Virus record (IMG/VR): IMGVR_UViG_2537562220_000008
Length of the DNA stretch: 26,838 nucleotides
Reading direction: 5' to 3' (one strand)
Source: a virus
Lineage: Duplodnaviria; Heunggongvirae; Uroviricota; Caudoviricetes
The translations under genes and the position numbers were made by a program. Below, in pieces: positions 433-26,838 of the stretch (its first letter is position 1; every line of letters starts with the position of its first letter). The notes beneath the pieces are model-generated. The model was not told the origin of the DNA. It saw nothing but the letters and a program-made list of their open reading frames with translations, and made no database searches.

Positions 433-1196
433 CAAAGCCCTGACGATCAACATCGACCATTACGGTGGCATTCGGTTTATTGCCTGTCAGATAATAATAA
501 TCAACAACCGTCATACCCTGGGTATATTTCCCCTGTGTTTCCACGCCAACCCAGCGCTCAACAGAGGTAAATAACTCCGGTTTCAACAGCCAGGCGATGG
601 TGCATGGGTCATGCAGTGGTGCGCCGACAAAGCCCCATTTTTCGTCTTTATGATATTCGAGGAAGAAATCCAGCAGTTCGGCAACAATGGTTGAAACAGG
701 GTTGCCAATCGCGCGGAAACGCTCAGTGTCTTCAACGTGGATTTGTGCTTTGTGAGTAACATCCAGACCGGCCATCACCACCGGGATCCCTGACTGGAAG
801 ACAATTTCTGCCGCTTCCGGGTCAACGTAAATATTAAATTCAGCCGCAGGCGTCCAATTACCCAGCCCCATTGCGCCGCCCATAATCACGATACGGGCAA
901 TTTTGCTATGCAGTTCCGGATGGCTATTGAGCAGCAAGGCAACGTTAGTTTGCGGTCCGGTAGACACAATCGTGACAGGTTCCGCACTTTCGCGCAGCGT
1001 TTTCGCCATCAGCTCTACCGCCGTACAGTTTTGCGGTGCGAACGTCGGTTCCGGTAATGCCGGGCCATCCAGACCGCTTTCGCCGTGCACATTGTCCGCG
1101 ATAATCAACTCACGCATTAACGGTTTTACCGCACCGCCTGCTACCGGAATATCGGTGCGATTAAGCAAGGTCAGCATACGCAGAACATTGCGTAAG
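433..1196 (-). pseudogene. rihA: ribonucleoside hydrolase RihA, internal fragment missing both ends
   Basis: ORF 428-1177 ([35 protein letters not shown]...) matches the nucleoside hydrolase RihA from about residue 50 onward as I recall it. The C-terminus is replaced by IS1 (stop lies inside the IS1 repeat); the N-terminal 50 or so codons are absent, with reading-frame identity lost near 1196 and an in-frame stop upstream. Confidence 0.65.
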
Positions 1197-1274
1197 TGAT
1201 GCGCCGCGCGATAAATGCACTCTATCTTGTGCGATAAATGGCATCCACGCGGCGTTTCATTATTTGAAAAAGAA
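1197..1274. other. Prophage terminus (Mu attR-like) with repeated candidate transposase-binding motifs
   Basis: Starts 5'-TG at the point where rihA identity stops; contains direct repeats GCGATAAATG at about 1209-1218 and 1241-1250; lies between the rihA fragment and the invertase stop codon. Confidence 0.5.
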
Positions 1275-1847
1275 TTACATTTCAGGTTGCGTTATGACAG
1301 TCCCAACAGGGTGATAGCGGTAGATCGTTGACAGTCCAATATCATAGATAATTGCCAGCCGCTTTCTGTCATACCCTTTCTGGAGCAATCTTGCGATCTG
1401 CTCATGCTGCTCCTTCGTCAGTTTCGGGCGACGTCCTCCAACTCTTCCTTGTGCTCGCGCAGCAGCCAGTCCTGCCAGCGTGCGCTCAACTATCAGTTCA
1501 CGCTCCATTTCTGCCAGTGCACCCATCATATGAAAAAAGAACCTTCCCATCGGAGTGCTGGTATCGATTGAATCCGTCAGACTGCGAAAATTGACACCTT
1601 TTGCGCGTAGCTCTTCTGTGAGAGCAATGAGGTGTTTCATTCTTCTACCCAACCGATCCAGCTTCCAGACCACCAATGTATCCCCTCTTTTAAGGCACTT
1701 TAAAGCGCGTTTCAGGCCTGGTCGTTCCGACTTGGTTCCGCTCATTTTGTCCTCAAAAATCTGTTCACATCCTGCGCACATTAATGCATTGCGTTGCAAA
1801 TCTATGTTTTGGTCATTTGTTGACACACGTATGTAGCCAATCAGCAT
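1275..1847 (-). CDS. Serine DNA invertase, Gin/Pin/Hin/Cin family
   Basis: 190-aa protein starting [34 protein letters not shown]... with the resolvase/invertase N-terminal catalytic motif (YIRVSTNDQ) and a C-terminal helix-turn-helix region; ATG at 1847 preceded by AAGGGAG. The ORF-track start at 1976 is an upstream in-frame artefact. Confidence 0.9.
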
Positions 1848-1902
1848 TAAAAATACTCCCTTTTGAGTGGTTAAAGTACTGAGATAATGTGGGGAGGATT
1901 TG

Positions 1903-1928
1903 AGAGATAAACGTTGGTTTGGGGGAAG
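1903..1928. promoter_or_regulatory. Candidate gix/hix-like inversion crossover site (left)
   Basis: Read inward to outward: TTCCCCCAAACC-AA-CGTTTATCTCTC, with the AAACC..GTTT core seen in Gin/Hin sites; sits exactly where homology between the two inverted arms ends. Confidence 0.5.
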
Positions 1929-2113
1929 GCTCTGCATTGCCTGTTGGTGTACCGGTTCCATGGCCCACCGCCACACCGCCAGCAGGCTGGTTAAAGTGCG
2001 ACGGGCGCGCCTTTACAAAAGAACAATATCCTGTTCTGGCCAGAGTCTACCCGACCCTCCGTCTTCCCGATTTACGCGGTGAGTTTATCCGTGGATGGGA
2101 CGACGGGCGCAAA
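1914..2113. repeat. Inverted repeat arm A (about 200 bp), partner of 3331-3530
   Basis: Sequence at 1914-2113 is the reverse complement of 3331-3530 (encodes ...GEGSALPVGVPVPWPTATPPAGWLKCDGRAFTKEQYPVLARVYPTLRLPDLRGEFIRGWDDGRK in both genes); similarity decays beyond about 2113. Confidence 0.85.
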
Positions 2114-2431
2114 GTTGATACAGGACGTAAGTTGCTGTCCGCACAAGGGGCAACGCTGTTAAGAACAGCAATGCTGGATTATTATAACCAGGACACTACG
2201 GGAACCTCGGGGATAGTCGGCATGGGATTCAACAATGAAGATTCCATTACAGACCTTCGTGAGGGCAGCTTTAAAATGCCGGACGGGACAACATTCAGCG
2301 ATCCTGTCGTGGCAATGTCAGACAATGGTATGCAGGCTACTATTCTGACCTCTATCAGAAGCGGGTATGCGAAGGGTATCACTGTCAGACCCCGTAGCAT
2401 TGCACTTAATTACATTGTGAGGGCAGTTTAA
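1919..2431 (+). CDS. Alternative tail-fibre C-terminal cassette (Sv'-like), promoterless in the present orientation
   Basis: Its N-terminal 65 aa are near-identical to an internal segment of the tail fibre (3052-4317); its C-terminus differs but ends with the same NYIVRA motif; directly followed by a tail-fibre assembly gene. Confidence 0.7.
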   Translation: MGEGSALPVGVPVPWPTATPPAGWLKCDGRAFTKEQYPVLARVYPTLRLPDLRGEFIRGWDDGRKVDTGRKLLSAQGATLLRTAMLDYYNQDTTGTSGIVGMGFNNEDSITDLREGSFKMPDGTTFSDPVVAMSDNGMQATILTSIRSGYAKGITVRPRSIALNYIVRAV

Positions 2432-3045
2432 TGAGTAACACTGCAGTTCTGGATGAAAACGGTATCGCCACTGTAGCGGGCGATATCACTGTATATCACT
2501 ATGACGAGGAAACCCGGGAATACACCTCATCCTCTGTGGAGTATCTCGCCCTTGGGGTGGGTACTCCGGCACATTCGTGCGCCGATGCACCGCCGGAGGC
2601 AATTTCGGGTTACGTGGTTTGCCGGACTGCCACGCTGAACGGGTGGGAGCATGTGCCTGATCACCGCGGCGAGACGGTATACAGCACGGAGAACGGTAAC
2701 CCTGTTCTGATTACCCAACCGGGTGATTACCCGGCGGACACCACCACAAAACAGCCAGCCACGCCATGGGATACCTGGAACGGTGAGGCGTGGGTAACCG
2801 ATACTGAACGGCAGCGAGCCGCAGAACTGGAGGTTGCCAGACAGCAACGCCAGCAACGGGTGAAACAGGCGATGGCGTCAGTCGATCTTATCAACCTCAA
2901 ACTGCGTGCTGGTCGCAGTCTGACACCAGAAGAAACGGCAAAACTGAACGCCGTGCTGGATTATATCGACGAGCTGAACGCACTGGATATCAGCACGGCA
3001 CCTGAAATCAGCTGGCCGGAAGCGCCACTGGCACTTGCCAGTTGA
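2431..3045 (+). CDS. Tail fibre assembly protein (Tfa/U-like chaperone)
   Basis: 204-aa protein whose C-terminus (...NLKLRAGRSLTPEETAKLNAVLDYIDELNALDISTAPEISWPE) has the conserved Tfa motif; start overlaps the Sv' stop (TAATG). Confidence 0.85.
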   Translation: MSNTAVLDENGIATVAGDITVYHYDEETREYTSSSVEYLALGVGTPAHSCADAPPEAISGYVVCRTATLNGWEHVPDHRGETVYSTENGNPVLITQPGDYPADTTTKQPATPWDTWNGEAWVTDTERQRAAELEVARQQRQQRVKQAMASVDLINLKLRAGRSLTPEETAKLNAVLDYIDELNALDISTAPEISWPEAPLALAS

Positions 3046-3051
3046 ACGGTA

Positions 3052-4317
3052 TCACGCCGCCCTCACGATATAGTTAAACGCGATATTGCGGGGGCGGGTT
3101 ATGTTAAAGAATGCTCCGTTTAATTCGGCTTTTGCGCGACTGTTTGTTCCACCCAGAATTACGTACCACAAATAATCGCTACGGTAATTCCCCGCAAACA
3201 CCTTATCGCCGCCATAGTCAATATTATTTCCGTTACTCATGTACGAGATATCAAGCGAAGAATCGTTATCGTCATGACCGCCGACCAGTGTACCTTTCTG
3301 CCATGAAAGCAACTTACGCCCCTCGTCAATCTTGCGCCCGTCGTCCCATCCACGGATAAACTCACCGCGTAAATCGGGAAGACGGAGGGTCGGGTAGACT
3401 CTGGCCAGAACAGGATATTGTTCTTTTGTAAAGGCGCGCCCGTCGCACTTTAACCAGCCTGCTGGCGGTGTGGCGGTGGGCCATGGAACCGGTACACCAA
3501 CAGGCAATGCAGAGCCTTCCCCCAAACCAAGGTAATTGAGGACATCTTTTATACTGCCCTTAGCGATAATAGCGCGACCAATAGCTGTAAGGGTTGCCAG
3601 CGCTGCGCGGTCTGCTCCGGTAAAATAAGGCAACCGATCTGCTGCAGTGGCAAGTCCTGCCAGAGCAGTGAGCGTGGCATCTGCCGGTTGTTTTCCGTTT
3701 GCCAGATCGTATGCAGCCTTGACCGCTTTCGGTGTGGCGGCCAGTATTTCAGACGTGCTGTTGATGGCACTGCTCAGTTGTACGGTGCCTTTTGCCGTCA
3801 GCGAGGCAGCAGGCACTCCCGTTATCTGACTCCACGGGTGAGTGTGGCTGACGGGCGCCTTGCCGGCTGCAAGGTCGTATGCAGCCTTGACCGCCTTCGG
3901 CGTGGCAGCCTCAGTTTCTGATTGACTGTCCGTGGCGCTGCTCAGTTGTACGGTGCCTTTTGCCGTCAGTGAAGCCGCAGGCACTCCCGTTATCTGACTC
4001 CACGGGTGAGTGTGGCTGGCAGGCGCCTTGCCGGCTGCCAGGTCGTATGCAGCCTTGACCGCTTTTGGTGTGGCGGCCAGCGTTTCAGAGGTGCTGTTGG
4101 TGGCACTGCTCAGTTGGGTGAACCCCTTAGCTGTCAGTGTCGCGTCCGGGTGGTTACGGGAACGTACGTGTTCAGCCAGTGACTGTGCGGCTTCCTCCGT
4201 TTTCTTCTTCAGCCATTTCGTCCTGTTTGCCAGTTGCCGGGGGCTCGATTTGATATCCCGTCTGCACCACCCAGAACCGGATCTGATGTCTCCAGTTGAT
4301 AGATATTTTCTTCCCAC
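3052..4317 (-). CDS. Tail fibre protein (P2 gpH / lambda Stf-like), currently expressed variant
   Basis: Contains tandem ...LTAKGTVQLSSATDSQSETEAATPKAVKAAYDLAAGK... repeats, a ...DATLTALAGLATAADRLPYFTG... segment and a collar-like C-terminal region ending NIAFNYIVRAA. Start is uncertain: GTG at 4317 has no Shine-Dalgarno sequence; an ATG at 4330 in another frame is a possible alternative. Confidence 0.85.
   Translation of the reverse strand: MGRKYLSTGDIRSGSGWCRRDIKSSPRQLANRTKWLKKKTEEAAQSLAEHVRSRNHPDATLTAKGFTQLSSATNSTSETLAATPKAVKAAYDLAAGKAPASHTHPWSQITGVPAASLTAKGTVQLSSATDSQSETEAATPKAVKAAYDLAAGKAPVSHTHPWSQITGVPAASLTAKGTVQLSSAINSTSEILAATPKAVKAAYDLANGKQPADATLTALAGLATAADRLPYFTGADRAALATLTAIGRAIIAKGSIKDVLNYLGLGEGSALPVGVPVPWPTATPPAGWLKCDGRAFTKEQYPVLARVYPTLRLPDLRGEFIRGWDDGRKIDEGRKLLSWQKGTLVGGHDDNDSSLDISYMSNGNNIDYGGDKVFAGNYRSDYLWYVILGGTNSRAKAELNGAFFNITRPRNIAFNYIVRAA
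3331..3530. repeat. Inverted repeat arm B (about 200 bp), partner of 1914-2113
   Basis: Reverse-complement identity with 1914-2113, as read directly from the sequence. Confidence 0.85.
3517..3542. promoter_or_regulatory. Candidate gix/hix-like inversion crossover site (right)
   Basis: TTCCCCCAAACC-AA-GGTAATTGAGGA; inner half-site identical to the left site, outer half-site different, as expected for the two ends of an invertible segment. Confidence 0.5.
3640..4150. repeat. 168-bp tandem repeats inside the tail fibre gene (about 3 copies, 56-aa units)
   Basis: The motif tacggtgccttttgccgtcag recurs at 3781 and 3949 (168 bp apart); the protein shows three successive ...TAKG(F/T)(T/V)QLSSA...AATPKAVKAAYDLA... 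units. Confidence 0.8.
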
Positions 4318-4345
4318 TTTTCTGTTTCATTCAGGTTTCCCATAA

Positions 4346-4924
4346 TCAACTGCTCCCGTGGTTATAACTGCCATCATGGATGGCGGTATTGTTATAGCGA
4401 ATGGCCACAGACTGATACTCCAGGCTGGCCAGATGGCAGCGGGCCGGTGCAAATGCAGCCAGCGTCTGACGCAGCATCGCGGCCTGATCGTTAGTAATGG
4501 GCTGTTTCAGAATAACGCGATAAACTGCCCAGGCGGCTGCATCTCCATGAACAAACAGTCCGTTATAGCTGCGATTGCCGTCGTAACTGAGACGACCTGT
4601 GCCTTCAATCAGATCCACTTCACCAAAGCCAAAACGGCGGATAACTTCCCGGATTGACCACGGCGTCCCTTTATACCGGTGCAGTTCGATGGCTGCTTTT
4701 ATAAGCATGCGGCGAACATCGTCCGATTCCGCCAGCTCCCAGCCATCGCCAGACAGTGAGAACTGCTCGCCCAGCCATGGCAGCGCGGAACTGTCGACGA
4801 TATCGACGAGAAAGACCATCAGTACGCTCAGGTCGATGTTATCCAGCCGTCCTGCCAGTCTTCCCAGCGTCCTGAGACTGATATCACCCTCAAGCGGTGG
4901 CGGGAGTTGTAATGGCTCAGTCAT
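4346..4924 (-). CDS. Baseplate/tail protein, P2 gpI-like (Mu gp48-like)
   Basis: 192-aa ORF immediately upstream of the tail fibre; start overlaps the stop of the J-like gene; size and position match gpI. Confidence 0.6.
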   Translation of the reverse strand: MTEPLQLPPPLEGDISLRTLGRLAGRLDNIDLSVLMVFLVDIVDSSALPWLGEQFSLSGDGWELAESDDVRRMLIKAAIELHRYKGTPWSIREVIRRFGFGEVDLIEGTGRLSYDGNRSYNGLFVHGDAAAWAVYRVILKQPITNDQAAMLRQTLAAFAPARCHLASLEYQSVAIRYNNTAIHDGSYNHGSS

Positions 4925-9244: not shown

Positions 9245-12200
9245 CAGCGGTACTCCTTACGTTGTTTCTGAGCAAGCAGACGCTCCAGCATTTTTTCCAG
9301 CTCATGCAGACTCATATTCAGGGCACCAGTCAGTCCTGCAGGCGCTGTGGTTTCCCTGCCATTGAGGAAAAACTGAGGATTAAAGCTGACCTGGATACCA
9401 CCAGACGTTCCACCGCCGGTTGCAGCTGCACCACGGCCTGAATATCCGGCAGCCAGGATTTCAGGCGAGGGGATACGGGGAACATCCGGTGTCATCTCAT
9501 TTGCCAGACGTTGCCCTGGTAAAATCGATGCCCGGGTGGAGAGCGGAATAGCGGGCATGGAAGACAAACTATTGATTACGGCTCCGATCGCATTTTTAGC
9601 AGACGACATAAACCCATTGATATCGGGCAACGGCATACTGAAGCGAACACCTGAAGTGTTATCCCGTATTTCTGGCCCCTGAATGCTCACGGGCATTTTG
9701 GGGAGCAGTTCACTGGCCATTCGCTGCCCGGCCAGAGCTGCAAGCGGAGTGGTCCGCTGCAGGCCAATGGCGGCCCCCTGCGCGATATTGTCACCAAAGC
9801 CCATAAACACGCGGCTCGGCGAATGAATGCCCAGCTTTTCGCTGAACCAGCCACTGATGCTGTCGCCCATTCCGGTTACACTGGATTTGAGCGACTCCCA
9901 TTTGTTTTTGATACCGTTAATCAGACCATCGACAAGATGGCCACCGAAGTCGGTAAACTTTGCCGGCAGATCAACACCAAGATATTTCAGCGCAGCTGCA
10001 AAGGCTTTATAGAGCAGACCTGCCGGCGACCAGTTAATCAGCAGCTTACCAGTTCCCGCGATACCGCCGTTAAAGGCTTCCTGAATGTCAGCCCAGCACT
10101 GTTTAAACCAGCTACTGATGCTGTCACCCATTCCGGTTACACTGGATTTGAGCGACCCCCATTTGTTTTTGATACCGTTAATCAGACCGTCGATAAGATG
10201 GCCACCGAAGTCGGTGAACTTTGCCGGCAGAGTAACGCCGAAATATTTCAGCGCAGCCGCAAAGGCTTTATAGAGCAGGCCTGCCGGCGACCAGTTAATC
10301 AGCAACTTACCAGTTCCCACAATGCCGCCGTTAAAGGCTTCCTGAATGTCAGCCCAGCGCTGTTTAAACCAGCTACTGATGCTGTCACCCATTCCGGTTA
10401 CACTGGATTTGAGCGACCCCCATTTGCTTTTGATACCGTTAATCAGACCGTCGATAAGATGGCCACCGAAGTCGGTGAACTTTGCCGGCAGAGCAACGCC
10501 GAAATATTTCAGCGCAGCCGCAAAGGCTTTATAGAGCAGGCCTGCCGGCGACCAGTTAATCAGCAACTTACCAGTTCCCACAATGCCGCCGTTAAAGGCT
10601 TCCTGAATGTCAGCCCAGCGCTGTTTAAACCAACCACTGACAGCCCCCCAGTTGCGGTAGATAAGGTAAGCTGCTGCCGCGACAGCGGTGATAACGAGAC
10701 CGATGGGATTCATCATCAGCGCTCGCCCAATCCAGAGAACGGCACGTGCAGCGCTCATAAAACCGCGAACGAGGCTGCCCGCCAGAACTTTGCTGAGTTT
10801 CAGTCCTCCGCTGGTCAGTCGGCTGAATCCAGTGACAAGCCAGCGTAATTTGCCACCTTCTCCGAGTGCGGTAGTCAGTCGATGCCAGTTGGTCCGGAGT
10901 AAAACAGCATTTTTCCAGACACTTACAAAGGGGGAAATAAGGAGATTCAGCCCCAGTTTGAGACCAACAGTCGCTATCTTAATCGCAAGGAGCGCACTGA
11001 TGAGCTTAAAAGCCCCACTGACAAATTGCGGGTGAGTCGCTACCCAGTGTTTTGCCCCCTGAATGAGTGGAAGCAGTTCCTGAGTCAAAGAAATAAAAGA
11101 TGGAGCTAATTGATCGCCCAGCGTAATTGCCAGATCGCGACTGCTGACCATAAGTGTTTTAGTGGCTTCAAGGGGAGATTTCAGTCGCTGATCGTAAGCA
11201 CTGGCAAGCAAATCGTTATCCGCAGCCCTGAGAGCACCGGCACGGATCTCTCGATATCTGTCCATGTTGGCCAGCATCGGGCGGATAAATGCCATGACCT
11301 GCATATCCGCGAACATATCACCCAGACCAAAGTTTTTCGCCAGAGCCTGAAGTGCCTCATCTCTTGCCGTATCATTCTTTATTTTCATGGCGGATTTGAA
11401 GCCGGCCAGCGCTTCGGGGCTTTTGGCATTGAGGTAACGTTCTATAACACTCAACATCCCTTCAATCGGAGAGATCCCCGCAGCCTTATAACTCGCAATA
11501 GATCCCTGCAAATCAATACCCAGATCAGCAAACTGTTTCTGAGTATCGCGGGCAAAAATTTTGGTAAGAAAGTTTTTAAAATTATTGGCTGCTTCGTCGG
11601 TGGAACCTGCACCGATTTTTGCTATCTGGAGACTGGCCCCGATTTCAGCAACAGCCTCTTTTCCACTGGCAATACCCGCCATCATTGGGGCCAGGGACTG
11701 CATCCACTTGACCTGATCCGGGATTTCAAATGACCCCTGGTCACCGGCATAAGCCATAATATTCTGAACGGCACCAAAATCTCTGGCCGCACCTTTCAGG
11801 GAGTTTTGCCAGACTGCGGCCACTTTTGCCCAGTCCTGAGCAGACGTGCGTGTTGCCGTTGCCGCGCGGGCAATATCCGGCATCAGAAAACCGATATCTG
11901 ACACATTATCAATATTGTCGCTGATGAGTGAACCCACCGCCTCCTGCAGCTCATCCTGATACTGATTGTATTTAAGCGCCCAGCCTTTTATCTGTCCGGC
12001 AAGTGCATCCCGCGTTTTATTGTCATATTTTGCGGTGATCGACATATCAATCATTTTGTCCTGAAAAGACATGGACTGCTGAACGGCAGGGGAAACCGTA
12101 TGATAAACAGTCTGTGCCATGCCATACGCTTCAATCCCCTGACCATACAGCGCCATGCGGTTAGCTTTCAGCGCATCACTGGTAGCGGATGCCGCTGACA

Positions 12201-26434: not shown

Positions 26435-26838
<404 letters not shown>

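Follow-up and report, generated by a model that had tools for sequence, protein, structure and literature searches.

The window, by which we mean the whole stretch of 26,838 nucleotides analyzed here, carries close to its beginning 78 bp of non-coding DNA between a DNA invertase gene and a fragment of the Escherichia coli gene rihA. The earlier note on this DNA had read these 78 bp as the terminus of a Mu-type prophage, which raises the questions of whether a transposing element really ends here, to which type of phage the end belongs, and whether the copy in the window could still move. The features at the boundary are the following.

433-1196, minus strand: rihA fragment (host target gene), 98.4% identical to K-12 rihA, with a product carrying the IU_nuc_hydro domain
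1191-1196, no strand: one copy of the target-site duplication CGTAAG, recognized from both junctions and the K-12 empty site
1197-1274, plus strand: non-coding right terminus on the tail-fibre/invertase side, starting 5'-TG; homology starts here in 599 E. coli records
1208-1217, plus strand: subterminal box 1 (GCGATAAATG), putative transposase-binding site; exact repeat, conserved box 12-20
1231-1240, plus strand: subterminal box 2 (GCGATAAATG), putative second transposase-binding site; positions 35-43 in all family ends
1248-1259, plus strand: inverted copy of the terminal 12-mer, CGCGGCGTTTCA versus TGATGCGCCGCG, 10 of 12 positions complementary

The comparison with K-12 argues against ordinary chromosomal sequence for this stretch. 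The match between rihA of K-12 (L008 3516-4279) and the window breaks off exactly between 1196 and 1197, where the sequence of the element begins. With a slash marking the junction, the window reads ...CATTG CGTAAG/TGATGCG, and the K-12 empty site, CATTGCGTAAGGTTTTTT, continues ...CGTAAG/GTTTTTTCTGG. The same starting point was observed in other genomes. Among 60 records, chosen as a spread sample of the 599 E. coli records holding this end, the alignment started exactly at 1197 in 49 and later in none, and the remaining 11 alignments ran 1-19 nt farther outward through chance matches. The break in rihA at this position and the shared start in differing neighborhoods identify a mobile element with the TG at 1197 as its outer end, and 1197 is confirmed as the position at which a Mu-like, transposing prophage inserted in E. 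coli rihA has its outer end. The rihA fragment itself is cut twice, on its 5' side by the prophage (1196/1197) and on its 3' side by an IS1 element (432/433).

The end sequence (1197-1274, TGATGCGCCGCGCGATAAATGCACTCTATCTTGTGCGATAAATGGCATCCACGCGGCGTTTCATTATTTGAAAAAGAA; its first 22 positions, 1197-1218, are TGATGCGCCGCGCGATAAATGC) is identical in the copies L001, L009 and L010 and differs by 1 nt in L011. The stop codon of the invertase gene occupies 1275-1277 on the minus strand, which gives the distance of 78 bp named in the earlier note; its statement that no com/mom-like module is present also holds, as neither an ORF nor such a module lies between the invertase stop and 1197. Promoter and terminator scans of window positions 1100-2000 found nothing. 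The inverted copy of the terminal 12-mer (partner 1197-1208) begins 39 nt inward from the end, lies shortly before the stop codon of the invertase gene and could be a third, inverted transposase site or else a chance match.

A search of 5426 complete E. coli genomes with window positions 1177-1500 detected the end at at least 99% identity in 597 of them (~11%, or about 1 in 9). These genomes contain it in 655 places, with no more than three per genome and 14 on plasmids, and the neighboring genes vary (idi, cbtA, srlE, zraS, lptF, yfaL, ssuB, an aconitase gene and a phosphopentomutase gene among them). Since hundreds of near-identical copies occupy different sites, including plasmids and genomes with multiple copies, this distribution suggests recent activity in E. 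coli. Among the plasmid-sized records, one plasmid occurrence is just a 111-bp terminal fragment.

The other end of the prophage lies outside the window because the contig is bounded by IS copies. To locate it, RihA N-terminal stub peptides were predicted for duplications of 3-8 bp with the far-end sequence of a complete relative. The stub specific for 6 bp (...EKTLRD, 48 aa) is present in a collection of 15 billion proteins, where it is labelled nucleoside hydrolase and assigned to E. coli 2845350 and its sister isolates; the bare ...TLR stub of the 7-bp reading is present as well, in only two 'partial' E. coli records. Contigs encoding the 48-aa stub and contigs of the window type belong to the same assemblies, for example GCA_000358815.1 (APXT01000093 and APXT01000094) and GCA_000357445.2 (APZO01000019 and APZO01000020). 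In these draft assemblies the opposite junction reads ...TCTAATCA/CGTAAG/GTTTTTT, and the stub contigs in window orientation read ...CATTTATCTCAAGTCTAATCA/CGTAAG/GTTTTTTCTGG. Both junctions together with the K-12 empty site therefore define termini of the form TG...CA, and on either side of the element the same 6 bp of the rihA target, CGTAAG, stand as a direct repeat. The earlier note had proposed looking for TG...CA ends and a 5-bp duplication; the termini were found as proposed and the duplication is one base pair longer. An exact search for the rihA/prophage junction in the GTDB species-representative genomes and IMG/VR gave no match, and none of the complete E. coli genomes carries the same rihA insertion (no place covering at least 80% of window positions 1000-1400).

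Three further insertions carry flanking repeats of the same length.

L001: target an intergenic terminator, 6-bp repeat GAGAAG
L010: target ssuB, 6-bp repeat TCTCGA
L011: target yhfW, 6-bp repeat GGATAT

With CGTAAG in rihA, the duplication is thus 6 bp in four of four independent insertions, and the reading frames of ssuB and yhfW are restored by deleting the element plus 6 bp but not by deleting the element plus 5 bp. The ends in L009 (NZ_LR130545.1) flank unrelated genes, a truncated yfaL on the invertase side and ycaL on the Mor side, with no matching 6-bp repeat, and this genome has more than one copy of the prophage. The genes yfaL and ycaL are far apart on the standard E. coli map, and we suspect an inversion or other rearrangement through recombination between prophage copies. 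In Burkholderia cenocepacia NCTC13227 the ends of BcepMu (on one contig; L026 6179 and L029 2926) have the flanks AGCATG and AATTGG and thus no duplication, provided that they belong to a single undisturbed prophage, and for this reason the 6-bp rule is claimed here for the E. coli lineage and not for BcepMu itself. A duplication length for BcepMu or B3 is not stated in PMC2628397, PMC5977238 or PMC4406740, and the phiE255 record is circularly permuted, with record termini that differ from the prophage ends.

Two forms of the Mor-side end were observed when L001 40040-40202 was compared with L010 39097-40090 and L011 37941-38934. The short form, which is that of the genome of the window, extends for 163 bp after Mor and ends in TCTAATCA, and the long form contains two extra small ORFs and ends in TCTGATCA; the terminal boxes are kept in both.

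The gene directly inside the end is a serine recombinase, and together with the segment next to it this gene bears on the question of how the element was inserted.

1275-1847, minus strand: Gin-family serine DNA invertase of 190 aa (Pfam Resolvase and HTH_7; 76% identical to Mu Gin)
1911-3533, no strand: invertible tail-fibre segment between 229-nt inverted repeats (1911-2139 and 3305-3533)

The segment holds alternative fibre C-termini and a tail-fibre assembly gene. Because it is found in opposite orientations in two otherwise identical sister draft assemblies (L004 and L005), the Gin-type invertase appears to be active or to have been so recently. A serine recombinase beside an inverted-repeat segment that occurs in both orientations is the arrangement of the Gin/Hin/Cin/Pin-type switches. 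The same gene, 78 bp from the boundary, and the P2-like tail module would also suit the att boundary of a P2-like prophage that depends on an integrase, or a site made by the adjacent serine recombinase acting as the integrase. We give this reading next to no chance: the four complete copies contain no integrase gene, the many insertion sites are unrelated and each has a different 6-bp flank, the TG...CA termini share no att core, and the recombinase is an invertase of the Gin type that flips the segment between the 229-nt repeats. The conclusion of the earlier note that the phage is transposable and not integrase-dependent is therefore upheld by the target duplication, the dozens of different neighbor genes, the DDE transposase and ATPase genes described below, and the lack of an integrase gene.

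The gene content of the window was compared with that of complete copies of the prophage.

1197-26488, minus strand: prophage part of the window, collinear with the complete relative L001 over 2004-27788

All prophage genes in the window are encoded on the minus strand and comprise the invertase gene and those for the tail fibres, the P2-type contractile tail, the Mu-type head and lysis. The main block (3700-26488) shares 99.3% identity with the complete 38.2-kb copy of E. coli EC5654 (L001; NZ_CP095086.1), and the invertible segment between the aligned blocks has only a partial match there. A Mu-type head module (Portal_Mu, Phage_Mu_F and virion morphogenesis protein), which agrees with what the earlier note had recognized, is coupled to a contractile tail module of the P2 type (sheath, GpU, tail X, GPD, base V, GPW, Baseplate_J and Tail_P2_I). 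Counted from the invertase end, the complete copies have on one strand the invertase, tail fibre, P2-type tail, Mu-type head and lysis genes, in the center a Dam-type methylase together with a CI-type repressor, and on the opposite strand an inverted early operon encoding a small HTH protein, a DUF3102 protein, the transposase, the ATPase, Gam, GemA and Mor, the last of which adjoins the far terminus. In the assemblies to which the window belongs, Mor is located 157 bp from the rihA stub.

Two structural genes contain tandem repeats. The tape-measure gene (window 9845-10640) has three tandem 261-bp units (95% matches), and its products in sister assemblies and relatives have 983 aa, 1070 aa or a frameshift, variation that reflects either length polymorphism or assembly collapse of the repeat. 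The tail-fibre gene (window 3700-4116) contains 2.5 tandem copies of a 168-bp unit (Phage_fiber_2 repeats) and is split in some sister assemblies into ORFs of 44 aa and 310 aa.

The early region lies outside the window, and its proteins were examined in the complete copies. The transposase (589 aa) is of the rve-type DDE class with the rve domain only and is 68% identical to BcepMu gp09, 69% to its counterpart in phiE255, 57% to that of B3 and 98.8% to that of Escherichia phage PhiKM. The ATPase (388 aa; AAA+ and ExeA-like, with AAA_22) shares 59% identity with BcepMu gp08. Profile searches with the transposase gave sub-threshold matches to IS481 and IS21 family models, and its sequence search against solved structures gave marginal matches to retroviral integrase cores. 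A tblastn search with the transposase against 50,697 phage records matched 69, which were phages of Pseudomonas and Burkholderia, two Escherichia phages and a few others, and the matches listed were of the BcepMu, B3 and PhiKM types.

Whether the end could instead be the attR of a true relative of Mu (Muvirus), with MuA/MuB homologues and 5-bp duplications, was decided on these early genes and on the flanks. Several features do resemble Mu, namely a match at 17 of 22 positions to Mu attR, the decamer CGATAAATGC, which is identical to part of the second right-end site of Mu, the invertase related to Mu Gin and the Mu-type head genes. Against this stand the transposase, which has no similarity to MuA (BLASTP E=0.47) and in the complete copies lacks DDE_2, HTH_Tnp_Mu_1, HTH_Tnp_Mu_2 and Mu-transpos_C, all of them present in MuA, and the ATPase, which has no similarity to MuB (E=2.6). 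Moreover, neither Mu nor D108 nor SfMu was among the tblastn matches listed, the early operon has the reverse orientation, with Mor next to the far terminus, and the tail genes are P2-type. Mu duplicates 5 bp of its target, in contrast to the 6 bp in all four insertions. We therefore regard the attR of a true Mu relative as a very improbable reading. Membership in Muvirus was rejected on the 6-bp duplication, the lack of MuA/MuB likeness in the complete relatives, the gene order and the missing com/mom genes. The MuA/MuB-like pair sought on the suggestion of the earlier note thus exists in the complete copies in the form of a DDE transposase and an ATPase, but these are of the BcepMu/B3 type and have no sequence kinship to MuA and MuB.

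The placement in the BcepMu branch follows from these transposition proteins, which resemble gp09 and gp08. The following characters of BcepMu/B3-type phages were found: homologues of both transposition proteins (seen in complete copies rather than in the source genome), an inverted early operon with Mor and GemA at the left terminus (as in L001 and BcepMu), TG...CA ends with paired subterminal repeats, the combination of a Mu-type head with a P2-type tail, and many unrelated insertion sites. With high confidence we consider 1197-1274 to be the right terminus, equivalent to attR, of a BcepMu/B3-type transposable prophage of ~38 kb in E. coli rihA.

To compare the architecture of this end with that of its relatives, the termini of the E. 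coli elements and of BcepMu were aligned inward from the tip.

E. coli right end, inward from terminus: TGATGCGCCGCGCGATAAATGCACTCTATCTTGTGCGATAAATGGC
E. coli left end type 1, inward from terminus: TGATTAGACTTGAGATAAATGACAGGGAATAAGTGAGATATTTATG
E. coli left end type 2, inward from terminus: TGATCAGACATGAGATAAATGAAGGGGGATCCGTGAGATAAATAAC
BcepMu right end, inward from terminus: TGAAGCGCGGCGCGATATTTCAGCACGTCGACGCGCGATAAATTCG
BcepMu left end, inward from terminus: TGAAGAGAGGTGAGATATTTCCAAGGGAGAACGCGCGATATTTCCG

Invariant columns in the five E. coli and BcepMu ends are TGA at 1-3 and G.GATA..T at both 12-20 and 35-43; the box can be written G.GATAWWT at these two distances from the terminus, and B3 has a degenerate version of the same plan. 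The right ends of BcepMu and the E. coli element agree at 28 of 45 positions, and the terminus at 1197-1274 has the end architecture common to BcepMu and B3. The repeat that the earlier note had described as lying about 30 bp apart corresponds to the two boxes: the whole 26.8-kb window has exactly two copies of GCGATAAATG (1208-1217 and 1231-1240), and the spacing is 23 bp from start to start. These two copies represent the family-wide pair of subterminal boxes with a 23-bp period, and their position and conservation make them obvious candidate binding sites of the transposase. For KS10, analogous L1/L2 and R1/R2 sites have been proposed, and TG...CA termini are characteristic of the relatives of BcepMu (PMC2628397).

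Beyond the termini and the duplication, which were observed directly, the following course of transposition can be proposed. The transposase would recognize the subterminal box G(C/A)GATAWWT at both of its positions near each terminus (12-20 and 35-43), pair both ends and nick 3' of the terminal CA, which on the other strand is the TG at 1197. The resulting 3'-OH ends would be joined to target phosphates at a stagger of 6 bp, and the AAA+ ATPase would presumably deliver the target DNA in a role like that of MuB for Mu. Filling of the 6-nt gaps, by repair in lysogeny or by replication in lytic growth, would then produce the 6-bp duplication.

The likeness to Mu in the terminal sequence exists despite a transposase without detectable sequence similarity to MuA. 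The Mu sequence given in the earlier note proved to be the exact first 22 nt of the right end in NC_000929.1, and its claim of closeness to that end stands: in fixed register, 17 of the 22 terminal positions in the window match (binomial P ~4e-7 at p=0.25, a value that is less extreme given the shared G+C richness). In relation to the 22-bp consensus of the MuA sites, the boxes match only in part, and this comparison carries no weight in the argument. The terminal matches, the shared decamer, the ~22-23 bp between boxes and the equal distances from the tip might together reflect a conserved ancestral way of reading the ends of transposable phages, an idea we regard as unlikely. If it were true, Mu-type and BcepMu-type phages in one E. 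coli cell might bind, interfere with or cross-mobilize each other's ends.

The state of the copy in the window is a separate matter from the identity of its end.

26489-26838, minus strand: IS21-family element (IstB_IS21, E=6e-42); homology to L001 stops at 26488

The window has the size of a contig in a draft assembly and is bounded by IS copies (IS1 at 1-432 and the IS21-family element from 26489). The latter splits a hypothetical gene between the lysis genes/holin and the regulatory region and reaches the window end, and the contig probably ends inside it, as the window does. A third insertion, IS66 (TnpA, TnpB and TnpC), is located inside gemA/gp16 (L012 10665-13350), ~0.9 kb from the Mor-side terminus; GemA has 98 aa in the genomes of the window as opposed to 149 aa in L001. 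With a genuine transposable-phage terminus, the copy in the window may nevertheless be a defective, immobile remnant, a reading that concerns function and not identity and toward which we lean slightly. It is favored by the IS21-family interruption of the prophage at 26489, the truncation of gemA by IS66 near the other end, the removal of the adjacent rihA 3' end by IS1 and the breaks of the assemblies at IS copies. On the other hand, neither the two termini nor the duplication are damaged, the 78-bp end has the same sequence as in complete copies, the late genes are 99.3% identical to the complete relative with no truncated ORFs noticed, and gemA as well as the interrupted intergenic region are possibly non-essential.

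On the host side, the IS1 copy, with InsA at 102-377, extends to 432 and has taken the place of the final ~38 bp of rihA. One assembly reads through this IS1 (L002 9785-11800) and continues with a 195-aa ORF, ybeL (DUF1451) and leuS. This order suggests that the hscC-djlC-ybeU stretch, which is found beside rihA in K-12, was deleted, probably by IS1.

For annotation, these results provide an exact boundary, TG...CA termini, likely transposase-binding boxes and a 6-bp duplication for a BcepMu-type prophage that is present in ~11% of complete E. coli genomes and that current pipelines label only with "recombinase family protein" and "integrase catalytic domain-containing protein". Known ends allow precise insertion calls, including the genes disrupted (rihA here; ssuB, yhfW and yfaL elsewhere), and help to spot rearrangements between copies. 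No concept is changed by them, as BcepMu/B3-type transposable phages and Gin switches are both well known, and GenBank already contains phage and prophage sequences that are nearly identical. For PhiKM-type E. coli phages, no description of the exact termini, the boxes or the 6-bp duplication was found in the searchable literature.

Among known systems, the small transposons and insertion sequences with Tn552/IS481-type rve transposases have a likeness confined to the catalytic core and none of the dimensions of a 38-kb phage; the Tn552 duplications of 6-7 bp would fit the 6 bp observed here, and the BcepMu transposase is annotated as Tn552/IS1604-type rve. Mu (Muvirus) shares transposition into random sites, TG...CA ends, the Mu-type head genes and the proteins Mor, GemA and Gam; close to its right end it likewise has a Gin invertase and an invertible tail-fibre segment, and its attR agrees at 17 of 22 terminal positions. 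It differs in MuA and MuB, which are unrelated in sequence, in a tail of its own rather than of P2 type, in the order c-ner-A-B at the left end and in the com/mom genes between gin and attR. Pseudomonas phage B3 (Beetrevirus), whose early operon is likewise inverted relative to that of Mu (PMC5977238), shares the transposase at 57% identity as well as TG ends and related boxes at equal distances from the terminus, but has a siphovirus tail module, another host and more degenerate boxes such as GAGAAATAC and GCGAAATTT.

Essentially the same phage as the E. coli element is PhiKM (PQ738613.1; Bcepmuvirus in the GenBank taxonomy), with the same gene content, the nearly identical transposase and 99% identity to window positions 3398-4400. 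Its record is partial, without the invertase and the right terminus, and the termini and target duplication are unannotated. Prophages of E. coli ST131 have also been called Bcepmuvirus by prediction tools (bioRxiv 10.1101/2022.05.07.487787). BcepMu itself (Bcepmuvirus; NC_005882.1) has the related transposase (68%) and ATPase (59%), the TG...CA termini with two G.GATAWWT boxes at 12-20 and 35-43, and the same gene order, from Mor at the left terminus through the inverted early operon, the central repressor, lysis and Mu-type head genes to the P2-type tail at the right terminus. In contrast to the E. coli element, BcepMu resides in Burkholderia, ends with an acyltransferase gene (gp53) and is without an invertible region (PMC2628397). 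The E. coli element for its part contains a central Dam-type methylase, and a Gin-type invertase with its invertible tail-fibre segment forms the last genes before the right end, in the place taken by the acyltransferase in BcepMu and by com/mom in Mu.
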